Source of the DNA: a virus
Lineage: Duplodnaviria > Heunggongvirae > Uroviricota > Caudoviricetes
Reading direction: 5' to 3' (one strand)
DNA: 30,598 nucleotides
Virus record (IMG/VR): IMGVR_UViG_638341084_000008
In this document: positions 1 through 8,006 of the stretch, piece by piece
Position numbering within the stretch: the stretch's first letter is position 1
How the letters are laid out: each line of letters starts with the position of its first letter
The notes under the pieces: model-generated
Told to the model about the DNA's origin: nothing
Databases searched by the model: none
The model's input: only the letters and a program-made list of their open reading frames with translations
Made by a program: the position numbers and the translations under genes

Positions 1-117
1 AAACACCATGACGAACTGCATGCGGATACCGTGGCATTTGAAGAGAAGTATGGCTCCCAGCTGGAGCTGATATTTCGTTTTATCGATCGTGCGCTGGCAA
101 TTGGCGTGCTGGCCTGA
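1..117 (+). CDS. 3' end of an upstream ORF of unknown function (partial; open from the window edge to TGA at 115-117)
   Basis: Frame 1 is open from position 1 to the stop at 115-117, ending ...[15 protein letters not shown]. It lies directly upstream of Q, where lambdoid phages carry nin-region genes. No family was recognised. Confidence 0.3.
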
Positions 118-134
118 TTTTGTGGAGAACGTTG

Positions 135-500
135 ATGCGTGATATTCAAATGGTTCTTGAACGTTGGGGGGCATGGGTGGCAAATAATCACGAGGATGTC
201 ACCTGGTCGTCTATTGCTGCAGGATTTAAAGGACTAATCCCTTCAAAAGTAAAATCCCGCCCGCAATGTTGTGACGATGATGCGATGATCATTTGTGGGT
301 GCATGGCTCGCCTGAAAAAGAACAACAGCGATTTGCACGATTTATTAGTGGATTATTATGTAGGTGGTATGACGTTTATGGCGCTTGCCCGTAAACATGG
401 GCGTTCTGATTGCTGGGTTGGGCGTTTATTGCAAAAGGCTGAAGGTGTAGTTGATGGCATGTTAATGATGTTAGAAATTGAGCTAGAGATGGATCGTTAG
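135..500 (+). CDS. Q: Late-gene antitermination protein Q (QuuD/phage-82-type small Q)
   Basis: The ORF translation from the ATG at 135 ([60 protein letters not shown]...) matches my memory of DLP12 QuuD-type Q proteins. It sits immediately upstream of the lysis cassette. The track start at 120 is a TTG, so the ATG at 135 is preferred. Confidence 0.8.
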
Positions 501-511
501 AAGACCTCTTA

Positions 512-585
512 TTGAGGGGGTAATTGAATCAGTTTAATGTGTGGGGAGTCGATTTATTCTCCCCATTTTATTTAATTAATTTACT
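512..585 (+). promoter_or_regulatory. Candidate late promoter / Q-utilisation region with hairpin, immediately downstream of Q
   Basis: TTGAGG (512-517), a 17-nt spacer and TAATGT (535-540) form a sigma-70-like -35/-10 pair. A hairpin GGGGAG..CTCCCC (543-564) is followed by a T-rich tract. The position after Q is where lambdoid PR'/qut normally lies. This is read by eye only. Confidence 0.3.
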
Positions 586-1031
586 TAAGGTTTTAATTCA
601 TCAAGACGTTGTTGGATAGTGTTTTTGCTTGCGTTGTCTGTTATAGCCATTTGTTGTACTTGCCCCATTGCCATTTGAGTTTCCATCCACATATCGGCCC
701 ACACTTTTGTATCGTTATTAACTTGAGCGATAGTAAATCTGACTTTTGATACCGGGGTTGTTGAATAGGCATTGCCGATTAACATTTGTCCAAAAACAGC
801 AGACCCGCCTTCCAGTTCTTTACCACATATAACACTGCTGTTATCAGCGTTGTAAATTATCAACCCTCTACTATTGCAGTAATTCACAAGGGCATCTTTG
901 ACTTTATCTTTTGTCGTATTTTGATAAACCCCCTCAGGTTTTCCTGATTGAGTTTTTTTTATCAATGGTACGGAAGAAGTACAACCTGAAATGATAGTTG
1001 CGCTAAGTAATAGTACAGTCATTTTATTCAT
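585..1031 (-). CDS. Predicted lipoprotein of unknown function, antisense to late transcription (moron candidate)
   Basis: 148-aa ORF with an N-terminal signal peptide and lipobox (MNKMTVLLLSATIISGC, Cys as the +1 residue). It sits on the opposite strand between Q and the late genes, the same position as the antisense porin morons in DLP12 and PA-2. Confidence 0.55.
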   Translation of the reverse strand: MNKMTVLLLSATIISGCTSSVPLIKKTQSGKPEGVYQNTTKDKVKDALVNYCNSRGLIIYNADNSSVICGKELEGGSAVFGQMLIGNAYSTTPVSKVRFTIAQVNNDTKVWADMWMETQMAMGQVQQMAITDNASKNTIQQRLDELKP

Positions 1032-1160
1032 GTTTCTTATCCATTGTTAAGGGCATACCTACACAATTATTTTTATTGGAGATGAATAATCAACCGTTTA
1101 CAATCGTAAAAAATCAAATATGCTGTTAAGAGTGGTTACTTCGCCACACAACTTAAACCC

Positions 1161-1179
1161 GCCGCTGAGCGGTTTTTTT
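1161..1179 (+). terminator. Weak hairpin plus T7 run, candidate intrinsic terminator (possible tR'-like element)
   Basis: CCGC-TGA-GCGG short stem followed by TTTTTTT (1173-1179). The stem is only 4 bp, so this is weak. Confidence 0.3.
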
Positions 1180-1299
1180 GTACCTGTAAACTTGGTGCAG
1201 TACAGTAAACACGCTGGTGGTCGTGAATACTGACCTTTTATCTTGCTGGCTTTTTAGACAAGAGTTATTGGTATGTCATGTTAACCAGAAGGGAAAAAG

Positions 1300-1505
1300 A
1301 CATGCTAAAACAGCAAGATATGACAGAAACCGCCGCCGCAGTCCTTCATTTCTTACCTGCTGACAAGTGGGTAACGCCACGCATGATGACGAGAACTACC
1401 GGAGTAAGCGAAGCCCGGTGCCAGTTAATACTGACTCAGTTAGTTCTGGCGGGTCTGGCGAAGGATAACGGCGGATACGGGAATAAATTCAGACGCTGCC
1501 AGTAA
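1300..1505 (+). CDS. Small putative winged-helix DNA-binding protein, possibly PapI/FaeA-like
   Basis: ATG at 1300 is preceded by AAGGGAAA; the track's upstream start at 1278 is less well placed. The segment VLHFLPADKWVTPRMMTRTTGVSEARCQLILTQLVLAGLA resembles the PapI/FaeA regulator pattern from memory. The family assignment is tentative. Confidence 0.45.
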
Positions 1506-1655
1506 TGGCGGTTTCCTGCTGTGAAAATGGGCGGCTGGTGGGTGTTGGTAGCACCTGCCAGCCATTCGCTCATGCTTACTGGTCACAAGCGAACCACGGC
1601 CCACTGCTTTAGCGCAAAAGCAGAGTGAGCCTACCAGAGTTACGCTTACTGATCC

Positions 1656-2708
1656 ATGAAAAATACTGTAAAAATAAACAGTGTTGATTTAATCAACGCT
1701 GATTGCCTGCATTTTATTCAGTCCCTGCCTGATGATTCCATTGACCTGATTGTTACCGATCCGCCGTACTTCAAGGTGAAACCCAACGGTTGGGACAATC
1801 AGTGGAAAGGGGACGAAGATTACCTTAAGTGGCTGGACCACTGTCTGGCCCAGTTCTGGCGGGTGTTAAAACCTGCCGGAAGCCTTTACCTGTTCTGTGG
1901 GCATCGCCTGGCATCTGATATTGAGATCATGATGCGTGAACGTTTCAACGTGCTTAACCATATCATCTGGGCGAAGCCGTCCGGACGTTGGAATGGGTGT
2001 AATAAAGAAAGTCTGCGCGCATATTTTCCTGCCACAGAGCGCGTTCTGTTTGCTGAACATTACCAGGGGCCATATCGCGGCAAAAGTGACGGCTATGCAG
2101 CAAAAGAAAGGGAACTCAAACAGCACATAATGGCACCGCTGATATCGTATTTCAGGGATGCTCGTGCCGAACTGGGTATAACGGCAAAACAAATTGCCGA
2201 AGCCACAGGTAAGAAAAATATGGTTTCCCACTGGTTTGGTGCCAGTCAGTGGCAGTTGCCGAATGAGGCTGACTATCGGAAGTTACAGGCACTGTTTTCC
2301 CGTATAGCGGCAGAGAAGTTTCAGGAACAACAACTGGAACAACCACACCACCAGCTGGTGGCATCTTATGATTCACTGAATCGCAAATATTCTGAATTGC
2401 TGGATGAGTTTAAATCTCTCCGGCGCTATTTCTCCGTATCAGTCTCCGTGCCTTATACCGATGTCTGGANGCATAAACCCGTTCAGTTCTACCCGGGNAA
2501 ACATCCGTGTGAGAAACCGGCGGATATGCTCNGGCAAATAATCAATGCCAGTAGTCGNCCNGGTGATCTGGTTGCTGATTTTTTTATGGGATCCGGTTCC
2601 ACAATAAAAGCAGCAATGGCGCTGGGGCGTCGGGCCTTAGGTGTTGAGCTTGAGTCAGAGCGGTTTAACCAGACAGTGAAAGAGATAAACGAGCTGGTGG
2701 GGAAATAA
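1656..2708 (+). CDS. DNA methyltransferase, beta-class amino-methyltransferase (N6-adenine or N4-cytosine)
   Basis: Catalytic motif IV DPPY (IVTDPPYF) lies near the N-terminus and the AdoMet-binding motif I (FFMGSGST) near the C-terminus, which is the beta-class order. The gene contains five N bases (2470, 2498, 2513, 2568, 2571) that give X residues in the translation. Confidence 0.85.
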
Positions 2709-2714
2709 TCTGGT

Positions 2715-2736
2715 GGCCACGTCAGGTGGCCTTTTT
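2715..2736 (+). terminator. Intrinsic terminator between the methyltransferase gene and the holin
   Basis: GGCCAC-GTCAG-GTGGCC hairpin followed by TTTTT. It would be read through under Q antitermination. Confidence 0.55.
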
Positions 2737-2775
2737 ATTTCCATTACACAGCACCCGCATCTGCGAGGTGGGGTT

Positions 2776-2991
2776 ATGAAATCCATGGATAAGTTAACAA
2801 CGGGTGTCGCCTATGGCACCTCAGCAGGTAGTGCCGGGTACTGGTTTTTACAGTTGCTCGATAAAGTCACGCCCTCACAGTGGGCGGCAATAGGTGTGCT
2901 GGGTAGTCTGGTATTTGGCTTGCTGACGTATCTGACAAACCTTTATTTCAAGATTAAAGAAGACAAGCGTAAGGCTGCACGGGGAGAGTAA
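2776..2991 (+). CDS. S: Holin, phage-21 S-type (pinholin) with dual-start motif
   Basis: [71 protein letters not shown] closely matches my memory of S21. The two starts (MKSMDK.. and MDK..) are the classic holin/antiholin arrangement. GAGGTGGGG precedes the ATG at 2776; the track start at 2713 is a GTG inside the terminator. Confidence 0.85.
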
Positions 2992-2995
2992 TTCA

Positions 2996-3340
2996 ATGAC
3001 TCAAAACTATGAACTGATTGTGAAAGGGATCCGCAATTTTGAGAATAAAGTTACGGTAACTGTAGCGTTACGGGACAAAAAACGCTTTGACGGTGAAATT
3101 TTTGACCTGGACATCTCGCTGGACCGTGTTGAAGGTGCCGCGCTGGAGTTTTATGAGGCAGCAGCCAGAAGGAGCATCAGACAGGTCTTCCTGGATGTTG
3201 CTGCCGGGTTATGTGAAGGGGATGAGCAGTCGCCGGAAAAGCGCCCCGTAATTTTAGAGGCGCAGGATGTGTTGATAACCTACAGAGGAAAACTACCGGG
3301 AATAATTACGGGTTCTCTGAAGAGTCCGCCGAAATGGTAA
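2996..3340 (+). CDS. Hypothetical protein inserted between holin and endolysin
   Basis: 114-aa ORF starting 4 nt after the holin stop, with GGGGAGAG upstream. No family was recognised. The lysis cassette is normally S-R-Rz without intervening genes. Confidence 0.5.
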   Translation: MTQNYELIVKGIRNFENKVTVTVALRDKKRFDGEIFDLDISLDRVEGAALEFYEAAARRSIRQVFLDVAAGLCEGDEQSPEKRPVILEAQDVLITYRGKLPGIITGSLKSPPKW

Positions 3341-3578
3341 TTTTACCAGCATATTTTTCATCCAGTAATACAGCAAGCCGCCTGAAAGAGTCTTGTTGTT
3401 CCTGAGACCATTTGGGATTGCATGATTCAAACTGGATTGATGCCAGCGTTGATTGCATCTGTTCCCTTGGAATTGAGAATGCCAGATATGAGAAGGCGAC
3501 GGTAAGGGTATTCACGTCTTCCCGAAGCCTGGAAATGCTGTCGAGCAACTCCTGTAGAGAAATGGTGTTATTGTCCAT
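3306..3578 (-). CDS. Hypothetical protein, convergent with and overlapping the 3' end of the 2996..3340 gene
   Basis: 90-aa ORF on the minus strand with GAGGA about 7 nt upstream of its ATG. It fills the 344-bp gap between the upstream unknown gene and the endolysin. No family was recognised. Confidence 0.4.
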   Translation of the reverse strand: MDNNTISLQELLDSISRLREDVNTLTVAFSYLAFSIPREQMQSTLASIQFESCNPKWSQEQQDSFRRLAVLLDEKYAGKITISADSSENP

Positions 3579-3683
3579 AAATAATCCTCATGATTGTATT
3601 GACCTGTTAGCAGCCTGAGGCAACAGGCTGGAACTGATAAACATATCCAGGGCTCAGAAACCGATAAATCCTGATAAATATCC

Positions 3684-4217
3684 ATGAACGCAAAAATCAG
3701 ATACGGCCTGTCGGCTGCCGTTCTGGCGCTGATTGCCGCTGGTGCGCCTGCGCCTGACATTCTCGACCAGTTTCTGGATGAAAAGGAAGGTAACCACACC
3801 ACGGCATACCGTGATGGCGCGGGTATCTGGACCATCTGCCGCGGTGCCATCCTGGTGGATGGCAAACCTGTCGTTCCGGGCATGAAGTTGTCGAAGGAAA
3901 AATGCGACCGGGTTAACGCCATTGAGCGTGATAAGGCGCTGGCATGGGTGGAGAAAAACATCAAAGTGCCATTGAGCGAACCACAGAAAGCGGGTATAGC
4001 GTCATTTTGTCCCTATAACATTGGCCCCGGTAAGTGTTTCCCGTCGACGTTTTATAAGCGGCTGAATGCCGGTGATCGTAAGAGTGCATGCGAGGCGATT
4101 CGCTGGTGGATAAAAGATGGTGGGCGCGATTGCCGCATACGTTCAAATAACTGCTATGGACAGGTTATTCGTCGTGACCAGGAAAGCGCATTAGCCTGCT
4201 GGGGGATAGATCAGTGA
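3684..4217 (+). CDS. R: Endolysin (lysozyme), probably a SAR-type endolysin
   Basis: The N-terminus has a weakly hydrophobic Gly/Ala-rich segment ([17 protein letters not shown]) followed by a lysozyme-like region ([20 protein letters not shown]). Both the position after the holin and the pairing with a pinholin fit the phage-21 lysis arrangement. Confidence 0.85.
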
Positions 4218-4681
4218 GCAGAGTCGCCGCGATTATTTATGCTCTGGTTATCTGCATCATCGTCTGCCTGTCGTGGGCGGTCAATCATTACCGTGATAAC
4301 GCCATCGCCTACAAAGAACAGCGTGATAAAAAAGTCAGTGAGCTGAAGCAGGCGACCGCCACCATTACTGACATGCAGCAACGCCAGCGTGCTGCTGATG
4401 TACTCGATGCTAAATACACGAAGGAGTTGGCTGATGCGAAAGCTGAAAATGATGCTCTTCGGCGCAAGCTTGATAATGGTGGTCGGGTGCTCGTCAAAGG
4501 AAAATGCTCTGTGCCATCCTCAGCCGAAACCTCCAGCGCCTCCGGCATGGGCAATGATGCCACCGTCGAACTCTCTCCAGTTGCTGGACGAAACGTTCTC
4601 GGTATCCGGGACGGAATCATCAGAGACCAGACAGCACTGAGAACGCTTCAGGAATATATCAGGACGCAATGCCTTCGATGA
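4214..4681 (+). CDS. Rz: Spanin inner-membrane subunit Rz (i-spanin)
   Basis: N-terminal transmembrane segment followed by a coiled-coil-like charged region. The GTG start overlaps the endolysin stop (GTGA), and the gene has an embedded +1 frame lipoprotein ORF. Confidence 0.8.
4434..4640 (+). CDS. Rz1: Spanin outer-membrane lipoprotein subunit Rz1 (o-spanin), embedded in Rz
   Basis: The embedded ORF encodes [21 protein letters not shown]..., with lipobox VVGC and a proline-rich mature part. AAGGAG lies at 4421-4426 before the ATG at 4434. Confidence 0.7.
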
Positions 4682-5199
4682 TAGCGATAATTTTACTCAT
4701 CATCCTTCACATCTGGCTCTGTAGACAGGGTGGTGATCACTTCTGGAGTGAATCCAGATTAAACATCTCATTGCTGATGCTTGAAGTTGAGCATCTGGCG
4801 CGCGGTAAGGGGCTGCGTTGAAATAAGAGCCAGTCATTACAAATACCAGGATTTAGCCTCGTATTCGCGGGGCTTTTTATTGCCATTACAAAAGCCACTC
4901 CCTACAGAGTGGCTTTGATAATGGCTTATACCCTACACGGGATAACTTAACTGATATCCCTTTTAACGGATAAAGGTATTCAAGCCTGACACATCATGCG
5001 CTGTATCGTCGCCGTATTCCCGTATTAACAGAGACCGTAGCCCGACGGGGAACTCCTTCTGCGAGAGTGTGCGGGGGTGGAAGAAACAGGATACTCACAC
5101 AGATTCTTGTGGGCACGATGCTATTCCTTTCTGGATTATCCCGATGCCATTCATGCAAGGCGCTGTATCAGACGTTCGTCATGGCTGTCAGGCTGACGG

Positions 5200-5410
5200 G
5201 TCCTCCCGGTGGGGTGGCCTGCCACGGGGCGGGAGCGTCGCGGAAAAAGGCTAGTTTTTGCATTTTTATTGGCCACCATCATCTTTGCATCTTATTGATT
5301 ATTAATGGTTATTTGTTTTTTGCATGTCGAATTGAGTGTTTTTTGTTCGACATCGAACGCGTTTTCTTAAAGTTGTTCGCACGATGCATGTTTAAAGCTC
5401 TCCGGAGGAA
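5200..5410. other. Candidate cos region (cosN-like GC-rich core plus small-terminase binding repeats)
   Basis: It lies between Rz and the small terminase gene, where cos sits in lambdoid phages. ACGGGGCGGGAGCGTCGCGG (about 5224-5243) resembles the lambda cohesive-end region. Three TTTGCAT repeats (about 5257, 5284, 5318) and a palindrome ATGTCGAA..TTCGACAT (5333-5363) follow. Confidence 0.4.
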
Positions 5411-5412
5411 AT

Positions 5413-5904
5413 ATGGATCATGAGTTGAAAAACCTGGTGCTGAATATTAATCAACTGGCGGCTTTATCTGGTCTGCACCGCCAGACTGTCGTGGCAAGAC
5501 TGAAAAACATTCGTCCCGCTGGTGGACATGACAAACTCAAGCTATACCGGTTGACCGATATTCTGACTGAATTTATGGGGTTACCACCGCCGGTTGCTGA
5601 GGGCGAAATGGATCCACATGAACGCAAAGCCTGGTATCAGTCTGAACGTGAGCGTCTTAAGTTCGAACAGGAAACGGCACAACTCATTCCGGCCAGTGAT
5701 GTCAGACGGGAGTTTGCCATCTGGGCAAAAGCGGTCGTGCAGGTGCTGGAGACATTACCGGATATTCTGGAACGTGACTGCGGCCTGCAGCCTGCCGCTG
5801 TGAGCCGTGTTCAGTCCATTATTGATGATCTGCGCGATCAGATAGCCCTGCGGGTGACCGAAGCAGGTGCGGATGATGAGGAGGAATTACAGCAGGAGGA
5901 GTAA
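5413..5904 (+). CDS. Terminase small subunit (Nu1-like)
   Basis: 163-aa protein with an N-terminal HTH-like segment (LAALSGLHRQTVVARL) and an acidic C-terminus. Its stop overlaps the large-subunit start (TAATG). Confidence 0.8.
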   Translation: MDHELKNLVLNINQLAALSGLHRQTVVARLKNIRPAGGHDKLKLYRLTDILTEFMGLPPPVAEGEMDPHERKAWYQSERERLKFEQETAQLIPASDVRREFAIWAKAVVQVLETLPDILERDCGLQPAAVSRVQSIIDDLRDQIALRVTEAGADDEEELQQEE

Positions 5905-8006
5905 TGCTGAATCAGGAAACCGCAACGGCAGCACGAACCGATTCAGGTTATATCCTTCGCGCACCGAGACGAATGCGGGTTGCTGATGCCGTTGCTCAGT
6001 ATATGCGGGTGCCCATGGGGGCAGGGAACTCAGTCCCGTGGGATCCGCTGGTGGCACCGTATGTTATTGAGCCGATGAACTGCCTGGCCTCGCGTGAATA
6101 CGACGCAGTGATATTTGTTGGCCCGGCACGAACCGGCAAGACTATCGGCCTGATTGACGGCTGGGTGATTTACAACGTGATTTGCGACCCTGCGGATATG
6201 CTGATCATTCAGATGACGGAGGAAAAAGCCCGCGAACACTCCAAAAAACGACTCGCCAGAACGTTTCGCGTCAGCCCGGAAGTGGTCAGTCGCCTGAGTC
6301 CGAACAAAAATGACAACAACGTTTATGACAGAACATTCCTTGCTGGCAACTACCTGAAAATCGGCTGGCCGTCAGTCAATATCATGTCCTCATCAGATTA
6401 TAAATGCGTCGCGCTGACGGATTATGACCGTTTTCCGGAAGATATTGATGGCGAGGGGGATGCTTTCTCTCTTGCCTCAAAACGTACCACAACATTTATG
6501 TCCAGTGGTATGACGCTGGTGGAGAGTTCCCCCGGCAGGGATGTGAAGGATGTGAAATGGCGACGGACTTCACCGCATGAGGCTCCACCAACCACTGGGA
6601 TACTGTCGCTCTATAACCGTGGCGATCGCCGTCGCTGGTACTGGCCCTGTCCACACTGTGGTGAGTATTTTCAGCCCTGCGGCGATGTGGTTGCTGGTTT
6701 CCGTGATATTGCCGATCCCGTGCTGGCAAGTGAGGCGGCTTATATTCAGTGTCCTTCCTGTTCAGGACGGATTATGCCTGAACAAAAACGTGAGCTGAAC
6801 GGACGTGGGGTCTGGCTGCGGGATGGTGAATCCATCAATGCGGATGGCAGTCGTTATGGTGATCCCCGACGCTCACGTATTGCGTCATTCTGGATGGAGG
6901 GTCCGGCAGCTGCTTACCAGACACTCTCGCAACTCGTTTACAAACTGCTTACTGCAGAACAGGAATACGAGACAACCGGAAGTGAAGAAACACTCAAGAC
7001 GGTTATCAATACCGACTGGGGATTACCTTATCTTCCCCGCGCCAGCATGGAGCAACGAAAAAGTGAACTGCTTGAGCAGCGGGCAGAGCCAGTTCCTTCC
7101 CGCAGTGTGCCGGATGGCGTTAATTTCCTTGTGGCGACAGTGGATGTGCAGGCGGGACGTCATCGCCGTTTTGTGGTTCAGGTAACGGGCTATGGCAGCC
7201 GTGGCGAACGCTGGATTATTGATCGTTACAACATCACGCAGTCATTGCGCGGTGACAGCGACGGGGAGAGCCAGCGAATTGATCCGGCCAGTTATCCGGA
7301 AGACTGGGATGTCCTGCTGACGGATGTTTTTCATAAAAGCTGGCCGCTGGCCTCCGATCCTTCTCAACAAATGCGACTGATGGCAATGGCGGTGGACTCC
7401 GGCGGTGAAGACGGGGTCACTGATAATGCCTATAAATTCTGGCGTCGTTGCCGTCGTGATGGCCTTGGTAAACGTATTTACCTGTTTAAGGGCGACAGCA
7501 TCCGGCGCGCAAAACTGATCACCCGTACATTCCCTGATAACACCGGACGAACGGGCCGACGGGCGCAGGCCGCAGGTGATGTACCGCTCTGGCTTCTTCA
7601 GACGGATGCCCTGAAAGACCGGGTGAATAACGCGTTATGGCGTGACTCGCCAGGTCCCGGCTATGTGCATTTCCCTGACTGGCTGGGGAGCTGGTTTTAC
7701 GACGAACTGACGTATGAAGAGCGGAGCAGTGACGGGAAATGGAGTAAGCCGGGTCGCGGTGCCAACGAAGCTTTTGACCTGATGGTGTATGCCGAGGCTC
7801 TGGTCATTCTGCATGGATACGAAAAGATCCGCTGGCCGGATGCACCGGAGTGGGCGAGCCGGGAAACCTGGCTGGAGTGTGTCCCGGACAGTACCGAACC
7901 GTCACCCTCACCGGAACCGGTATCCACGCCTGTTAAAAAACAAAAACGGAAGAAAACAGTAACTGACGATGTTAACCCCTGGCTGACTTCCGGAGGATGG
8001 TTATGA
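5904..8006 (+). CDS. Terminase large subunit (gpA-like)
   Basis: 700-aa protein with a Walker A-like motif (VGPARTGKT) in the N-terminal ATPase region, placed as in lambda between the small terminase and W/portal. Confidence 0.9.
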   Translation: MLNQETATAARTDSGYILRAPRRMRVADAVAQYMRVPMGAGNSVPWDPLVAPYVIEPMNCLASREYDAVIFVGPARTGKTIGLIDGWVIYNVICDPADMLIIQMTEEKAREHSKKRLARTFRVSPEVVSRLSPNKNDNNVYDRTFLAGNYLKIGWPSVNIMSSSDYKCVALTDYDRFPEDIDGEGDAFSLASKRTTTFMSSGMTLVESSPGRDVKDVKWRRTSPHEAPPTTGILSLYNRGDRRRWYWPCPHCGEYFQPCGDVVAGFRDIADPVLASEAAYIQCPSCSGRIMPEQKRELNGRGVWLRDGESINADGSRYGDPRRSRIASFWMEGPAAAYQTLSQLVYKLLTAEQEYETTGSEETLKTVINTDWGLPYLPRASMEQRKSELLEQRAEPVPSRSVPDGVNFLVATVDVQAGRHRRFVVQVTGYGSRGERWIIDRYNITQSLRGDSDGESQRIDPASYPEDWDVLLTDVFHKSWPLASDPSQQMRLMAMAVDSGGEDGVTDNAYKFWRRCRRDGLGKRIYLFKGDSIRRAKLITRTFPDNTGRTGRRAQAAGDVPLWLLQTDALKDRVNNALWRDSPGPGYVHFPDWLGSWFYDELTYEERSSDGKWSKPGRGANEAFDLMVYAEALVILHGYEKIRWPDAPEWASRETWLECVPDSTEPSPSPEPVSTPVKKQKRKKTVTDDVNPWLTSGGWL

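Follow-up and report, generated by a model that had tools for sequence, protein, structure and literature searches.

A ydfR-family gene and an overlapping convergent gene between the holin and endolysin genes of a lambdoid Escherichia coli prophage

The lysis cassette and its ydfR gene

The window, i.e., the whole stretch of 30,598 nt that was analysed (IMG/VR record IMGVR_UViG_638341084_000008), is the late region of a lambdoid E. coli prophage (Table 1). The genes encoding the antiterminator Q and a DNA methyltransferase precede an S21-type lysis cassette, and terminase, head, and tail genes follow Rz/Rz1. The holin and the lysozyme that the initial annotation had proposed as the flanking genes were both borne out by Pfam matches, and RefSeq names essD at the equivalent position of the holin in locus L001. 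The Gly/Ala-rich hydrophobic segment at the N-terminus of the endolysin suggests that it is of the SAR (signal-anchor-release) type. We found no recognisable Shine–Dalgarno sequence upstream of its ATG (CCTGATAAATATCCATG, positions 3640–3683); this stretch is conserved in cassettes with or without the reverse gene described below. The strong terminator-like hairpin between the methyltransferase and holin genes implies that late transcription must read through it. Several N bases within the methyltransferase gene (2470–2560) indicate that the assembly of the window is imperfect. Rfam and tRNA scans of positions 1–6000 gave no matches.

Two genes lie between the holin and the endolysin: a forward gene (ORF1) and a reverse gene, hereafter B. 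Both were found exactly where the initial annotation had placed them, as were their convergence and the overlap of their 3' ends by 35 nt. The same pair with the same overlap is annotated in E. coli strain 1290 (RefSeq) and in phage vB_EcoS-783R2.

Table 1. Coordinates of the features of the window and of compared loci
Locus	Feature	Position	Strand	Remarks
Window	Antiterminator Q gene	120–500		
Window	Lipoprotein-like ORF, 148 aa	585–1031	-	Between Q and methyltransferase genes
Window	DNA methyltransferase gene	1656–2708		
Window	Terminator-like hairpin, strong	2715–2731		GGCCAC-GTCAG-GTGGCC then TTTTTATTT; between methyltransferase and holin genes
Window	S21-type (class II) holin gene	2776–2991	+	PF04971, E=2e-35; two early Met codons (MKSM...)
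Window	ORF1, ydfR family (DUF1327), 114 aa	2996–3340	+	ATG start
Window	GC-rich hairpin within ydfR	3237–3264		GCGCCCC, 9-nt loop, GAGGCGC
Window	Overlap of ORF1 and B	3306–3340	+/-	+ codes YdfR tail ...TGSLKSPPKW*; - codes B C-terminus ...ITISADSSENP*
Window	Gene B (ORF2), 90 aa	3306–3578	-	ATG start, GAGGA 6 nt upstream
Window	B insert (approximate, about 300 bp)	3332–3637	-	Relative to the O157:H7-type cassette L005, which has about 14 bp
Window	Intergenic region, B start to endolysin start (105 nt)	3579–3683		Shine–Dalgarno GAGGA of B is the complement of 3585–3589
Window	Hairpin	3611–3630		CAGCCTG-AGGCAA-CAGGCTG; loop is the candidate -35 hexamer for B
Window	Endolysin (phage lysozyme) gene	3684–4217	+	PF00959, E=1.2e-23
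Window	Rz spanin gene	4214–4681	+	PF03245, E=8e-29
Window	Rz1-like lipoprotein frame embedded in Rz	4389–4640 (ORF)		Contains ...LIMVVGCSS
L009	Partner C-terminus			...KITGSLRAPIKL
L010	Partner C-terminus			...RIIGSLITPPEL
L014	Reverse B homologue and tail-bearing partner	3133–4852		Between tail genes M and L; partner C-terminus ...IFGDLKKPPSY
L018	Partner C-terminus			...LTGDILIPLES
L029	Reverse B homologue and tail-bearing partner	1–1195		After gpM; partner C-terminus ...LRDGSLVSF
L031	Partner C-terminus			...KITGSLRVPMKL; upstream of a different holin/endolysin set
L022	Lone B-family locus	3638–4730		
L017	Lone B-family locus	4001–4294		
L028	Lone B-family locus	2542–2811		
L013	holin-ydfR-B, then second lysis set	785–2803		phiSTEC1575-Stx2k
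L024	phrog_2572 cargo	2501–3239		E. coli CP026836

The initial annotation recognised no family for either product. ORF1, which starts 4 nt beyond the holin stop codon with GGAGAG 8 nt upstream of its ATG, matches the Pfam domain DUF1327 (PF07041; E=1.3e-43, 147.6 bits for a gathering cut-off of 25, model positions 1–91 of 93) and phrog_406 (E=2.5e-68). Its first 74 residues are 82% identical to those of K-12 YdfR, and its dN/dS is 0.3–0.48. We found ydfR-like DNA in 4,349 of the 5,426 complete E. coli genomes (about 80%) and in 101 phage records, including H-19B, BP-4795, Stx2 phage 86, and mEp460. The gene lies between the holin and lysozyme genes in every locus that we inspected, including 80 out of 80 loci of IMG/VR. 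Sequence similarity and synteny securely class ORF1 as a YdfR/DUF1327 gene that is common and regular in S21-type lysis cassettes. The lysis cassette had been assumed to be normally contiguous, and ORF1 to be an insert in it. This premise fails for S21-type cassettes: the presence of ydfR in most E. coli genomes means that they are normally interrupted by this gene.

The AF2 model of the ORF1 product consists of three strands and a long helix (residues 5–73), a linker, and a C-terminal tail (residues ~85–114) that ends in ITGSLKSPPKW and is predicted to form two short strands; confidence is low overall (mean pLDDT of 61, below 50 in the tail). Its fold matches were all in the noise range, including one to Dip. 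Neither ORF1 nor B encodes a protein with a membrane segment or a signal peptide.

Coding status, family, and expression signals of gene B

Gene B belongs to a family that is already catalogued, contrary to the initial annotation. Its entire length aligns with phrog_2411 (E=1.1e-58, positions 1–90 of 90), and it corresponds to the RefSeq entry WP_000369850.1, a 'hypothetical protein', and to the UniProt name 'Ybl58'. Five distant homologues (P0185, P0187, P0192, P0194, and P0197) also match PHROG 2411; a conserved motif is common to the distant homologues. Only 20 matches came out of an exhaustive profile search against 1.84 billion representative proteins. Among species-representative genomes, a closer profile matched those of Escherichia ruysiae and Citrobacter meridianamericanus alone, the profile of the distant homologues being too divergent for a genome scan. 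The family is small and enterobacterial. Literature searches under 'ybl58' or 'WP_000369850' found nothing.

The initial annotation had named a lack of conservation at the protein level among the observations that would speak against its two genes. We found the opposite for B, whose frame is open in seven out of seven diverged homologues. The dN/dS is 0.23–0.39 across seven diverged DNA copies and 0.08–0.33 outside the overlap, where dS is saturated against the Citrobacter-like copies. Purifying selection is seen across Escherichia and Citrobacter, and homologues at 58–99% identity keep the same length; the 'homologues' of 94 aa turned out to be frameshift alleles. The antisense frame of B shows a similarly low dN/dS, which is explained by the coincidence of its third codon positions with those of B. 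This frame is interrupted by stop codons at shifting positions in six of the seven homologues, and we therefore rejected it as coding. The ribosome-binding site that had been described as good and specific to B stands: the GAGGA Shine–Dalgarno sequence and the ATG are conserved in the five alleles compared. Together, these comparisons make a secure case that B is a real, selected protein-coding gene of an uncharacterised family.

The predicted protein is acidic (pI of 4.5, net charge of -5). Its AF2 model has three helices (residues 8–34, 38–52, and 59–76) with a mean pLDDT of 76, and ends in a C-terminus predicted to be disordered (residues 79–90, pLDDT below 50) that coincides with the overlap. 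We found no match to B among the families of Pfam, NCBIfam, or PADLOC; an NCBIfam match to the anti-silencing protein Mip (E=0.037, over 15 residues) was discarded as noise. PADLOC-DB 2.0 gave no match for ORF1 or B at E-values up to 1, and the B profile had none among PDB sequences at E-values up to 10. The best fold matches had E=1.2 in PDB and E=0.4 in BFVD, and all were generic helical bundles. The exclusion, anti-defence, or lysis-timing roles that had been suggested for the locus thus find no echo in PADLOC, Pfam, NCBIfam, PDB, or BFVD for B, and nothing that we tested points to them.

A consensus scan identified neither a sigma-70 promoter nor an intrinsic terminator for B. A weak candidate sigma-70 promoter can be read on the minus strand, with TTGCCT as -35 (complement of 3618–3623), a 19-nt spacer, and TACAAT as -10 (complement of 3593–3598). 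Other alleles conserve it in part, and a transcript starting from it would have a very short leader, of about 8 nt. The candidate -35 hexamer falls in the loop of the hairpin that the initial annotation had correctly noticed before the endolysin gene, albeit one base off (at 3612–3631). Within 41 nt of local sequence, this hairpin has a stability of -14.9 kcal/mol (z=-2.7; 4 of 200 shuffled sequences are as stable), but it is unremarkable in the full 105-nt intergenic region (z between -0.3 and -0.8). Across five alleles its stem measures 7, 5, 5, 7, and 4 bp, and we found no compensatory changes. We rejected it as a conserved RNA element because the stem decays in other alleles and the z-scores are unremarkable across the intergenic region. 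A second, GC-rich hairpin lies within ydfR, 42–70 nt past the stop codon of B, and is followed on the minus strand by UUUUCC. Homology with mEp460 breaks exactly at this hairpin, of which mEp460 has an 8-bp version; cassettes that lack B have the hairpin too. It may mark a site of recombination, or it may act as a terminator on the antisense strand that ends the B transcript.

Distribution of B and of its convergent partners

At least 80% of the segment 3248–3668 is present in 1,130 of the 5,426 complete E. coli genomes (about a fifth, including ST131). Only 3 out of 50,697 deposited phage genomes encode B, but we found it in 208 IMG/VR contigs, and the exact protein of the window occurs on at least 1,000 contigs. 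All 80 IMG/VR loci that we inspected have the order holin-ydfR-B(reverse)-lysozyme-Rz and match residues 1–89 or 1–90 of B. A comparison of synteny, as proposed with the initial annotation, shows that B is variable among otherwise collinear cassettes. The boundaries are clean in two of them. O157:H7 strain FRIK944 has the same 114-aa YdfR, followed 50 bp on by the lysozyme gene, and lacks B. Phage mEp460 also lacks B, has a diverged tail, and loses homology at about position 3247. The idea of variable accessory cargo thus holds for B and fails for ORF1.

The insert has a GC content of 43.8%, versus 48–54% in the flanks. Between the window and the isolate F95 (L006), ydfR is nearly identical (dS=0.014) and B is diverged (dS=0.33), which indicates that the alleles of B are exchanged separately. 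We found no target-site duplication at the insert, and no flanking repeats above short chance repeats. The alignments securely support the view of B as an optional insert exactly at the stop codon of ydfR, on the opposite strand, probably of the moron type.

The same site can carry another cargo. In these cassettes, a YdfR of 176 or 183 aa converges with a reverse gene of 86 aa (phrog_2572), with an overlap of 53 nt. They are present in 294–353 E. coli genomes, versus 1,130 for B. The site and the architecture are the same, and here too a small helical protein encoded in reverse converges on YdfR. However, the two reverse genes show no detectable homology (hhalign probability of 0.6%), and YdfR has a 64-aa C-terminal extension beyond the PP motif in the phrog_2572 cassettes. 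The junction between ydfR and the endolysin gene is thus a hot spot for cargo with at least three states. In phiSTEC1575-Stx2k, holin-ydfR-B is followed by a second complete lysis set, with two holin genes and an M15 peptidase gene, in place of the lysozyme gene; homology breaks off where the lysozyme gene, now lost, had its start codon.

The distant homologues of B reveal a second regularity. In the phage contexts examined they always face a small forward gene, which they overlap by 7–20 nt; across all phage contexts, the 3' overlap is kept within a range of 7–53 nt. The N-termini of these forward partners differ from that of the window YdfR and usually form a short coiled coil. The partner in Citrobacter meridianamericanus is a protein of 238 aa, whose N-terminus is not detectably DUF1327 and of which only the tail aligns. 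The C-terminal motif of the window YdfR, I-T-G-S-L-K-x-P-P, ends the partner in six other loci, with the variations given in Table 1. In a further locus (L020), the partner is convergent and overlaps the B homologue without having the terminal motif. The codons of the tail differ mainly by synonymous changes between the window and L009, which places the constraint at the protein level. With a pI of 9.5 the tail is basic, versus the acidic B.

Two of these pairs (L014 and L029) lie between gpM and gpL in other enterobacterial prophages, from which we conclude that the pair moves between sites of the late operon. The pairing is recurrent and not obligatory, since each element is found without the other. 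O157 and the PPESQP and mEp460 variants have the tail and lack B, and homologues of B stand alone in three chromosomal contexts outside prophages. These lone genes are located between dinI and bssS, beside a heavy-metal ATPase gene, and beside an AIDA-type autotransporter gene. The recurrent convergent pairing of B-family genes with a tail-bearing gene, shown here by comparison of gene neighbourhoods, is new.

Possible roles of YdfR and B

The arrangement is genuine, largely ordinary, and already catalogued. Its case is one of annotation and comparative genomics and not of a new mechanism. The interest that remains lies in B, an abundant and unstudied small protein, and in its conserved convergent pairing. 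As for YdfR, it is among the commonest genes of E. coli prophages, and its link with RNase E is only recent.

This link comes from a 2026 study of the K-12 protein (PMC13232886), in which YdfR binds residues 1–597 of Rne in a bacterial two-hybrid assay and Rne 1–598 co-purifies with it. The contact surface of YdfR for RNase E lies within its residues 1–72, and RNA (DNase-resistant nucleic acid) also co-purifies with YdfR (PMC13232886). The K-12 gene has almost no reads under standard growth, its overexpression leads to few changes in the transcriptome, and a genetic screen cited in the study ties it to envelope integrity (PMC13232886). The overexpression was reported to cause no growth defect. 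We found one incidental mention of DUF1327 in the literature. The K-12 gene, in the Qin prophage, is placed like the one in the window, between essQ (holin) and rrrQ (lysozyme), and matches the same Pfam model. Yet it encodes 103 aa with a helical C-terminus and abuts the lysozyme gene, whereas the window protein has 114 aa, the ...ITGSLKSPPKW tail, and a reverse gene overlapping its end. By analogy with the K-12 protein, the YdfR allele of the window probably binds RNase E. Other phage proteins reportedly target RNase E, namely Srd of T4, gp0.7 of T7, and Dip of phiKZ. These proteins act early in lytic phages, and their effects on RNA decay have been demonstrated. In contrast, temperate phages carry ydfR among their late genes, few transcripts changed when it was overexpressed, and the fold match of YdfR to Dip is noise.

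The explanation that we favour, with moderate confidence, is that ydfR encodes a late accessory of RNase E and that B is a moron made in the lysogen that binds a protein, perhaps the tail of YdfR. In this scenario, the late transcript that depends on Q would carry ydfR along with the genes for holin, endolysin, and spanin. The conserved N-terminal core of YdfR would contact RNase E in its catalytic half, and perhaps RNA too, as the K-12 orthologue does. It would thereby modulate RNA decay late in infection, as an accessory and not as a lysis enzyme. Since B opposes the late operon, it is most likely made in the lysogen, from a weak promoter of its own, as a small acidic cytoplasmic protein of three helices. 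After induction, head-on late transcription would shut it off. We infer this timing of expression from the orientation of the genes. B most likely acts through protein binding. As its partner we favour the basic tail (...ITGSLKxPP) at the C-terminus of the convergent gene product because this tail accompanies B-family genes in the phage contexts examined; contact between the two is inferred from this association. The interaction of B with the tail, coupled with reciprocal expression, makes for a concrete hypothesis that is cheap to test.

Alternatively, B may act independently of YdfR, as a cargo for lysogenic conversion or defence that targets the host or incoming phages; the overlap would then be a landing site only. 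We regard this as possible but rather unlikely. Morons such as bor and cor typically show reverse orientation in a late operon, polymorphism of presence and absence, and exchange with another cargo at one site, and so does B. Moreover, the lone chromosomal homologues show that B can function without a partner. The morons of lambdoid prophages include bor in lambda and cor in the tail operon of phi80 and N15; both encode envelope proteins of established function and have defined promoters. Like bor, B lies on the opposite strand between conserved late genes, is present or absent among related phages, and has a lower GC content than its flanks. It differs from bor and cor in that its product is cytoplasmic, no promoter or terminator can be recognised for it, and its 3' end overlaps that of the neighbouring gene. 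B also lacks a PADLOC match and any known fold or domain, which speaks against this reading. Furthermore, we see the same tail-bearing partner again and again, in seven independent phage contexts of which one lies between tail genes M and L, making a chance insertion hard to invoke. In locus L026, a bor gene lies within the same kind of cassette.

A stronger version of the B–tail interaction is distinctly unlikely in our judgement. The tail-bearing gene and B could form an undescribed two-gene switch module of enterobacterial temperate phages, in which the products neutralise each other via ...ITGSLKxPP. The lysogen would make B, the partner with the tail (in the window fused to the YdfR core, the putative binder of RNase E) would be made late, and head-on transcription would reinforce their mutually exclusive expression. 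B might, for instance, be an effector of the prophage whose activity has to be turned off when the phage itself grows lytically.

Another reading is that YdfR or the pair tunes the timing of the pinholin/SAR-endolysin pathway, e.g., as an antiholin-like or endolysin-regulating factor, in view of the place of ydfR between these two lysis genes and of its start 4 nt beyond the stop codon of the holin. The pair also adjoins lysis genes in Citrobacter and in L018, and the link of ydfR to envelope integrity, from the screen cited in PMC13232886, is in line with such a role. However, neither protein has the membrane segment or signal peptide mentioned above, the module is also found between tail genes, far from lysis genes, cassettes work with or without B, and K-12 ydfR can be overexpressed without a growth defect. 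We thus consider this explanation very unlikely.

We are equally doubtful that the main product of the minus strand is an RNA, which by reading through the 3' end of ydfR and into the holin gene would silence leaky lysis genes in the lysogen (by antisense or transcriptional interference). The lack of a strong terminator between the stop codon of B and the holin gene and the conservation of the 3' overlap (7–53 nt) in all phage contexts would fit such a role. They have to be weighed against the strong constraint on the B protein, with dN/dS down to 0.08 at saturated dS, against the conservation of its Shine–Dalgarno sequence and start codon, and against the lack of an Rfam match and of a recognisable promoter.

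Finally, the 94-aa frameshifted alleles on record and the rarity of B in deposited phage genomes might suggest a decaying or non-functional ORF carried in prophages, but this is highly improbable given the purifying selection across Escherichia and Citrobacter, the at least 1,000 contigs with the exact protein, and the matches to residues 1–89 or 1–90 in all 80 IMG/VR loci inspected.

The window has another reverse gene among its late genes. The ORF located between the Q and methyltransferase genes, labelled hypothetical in RefSeq, has a lipoprotein signal (MNKMTVLLLSATIISGC...) and looks like a further moron.
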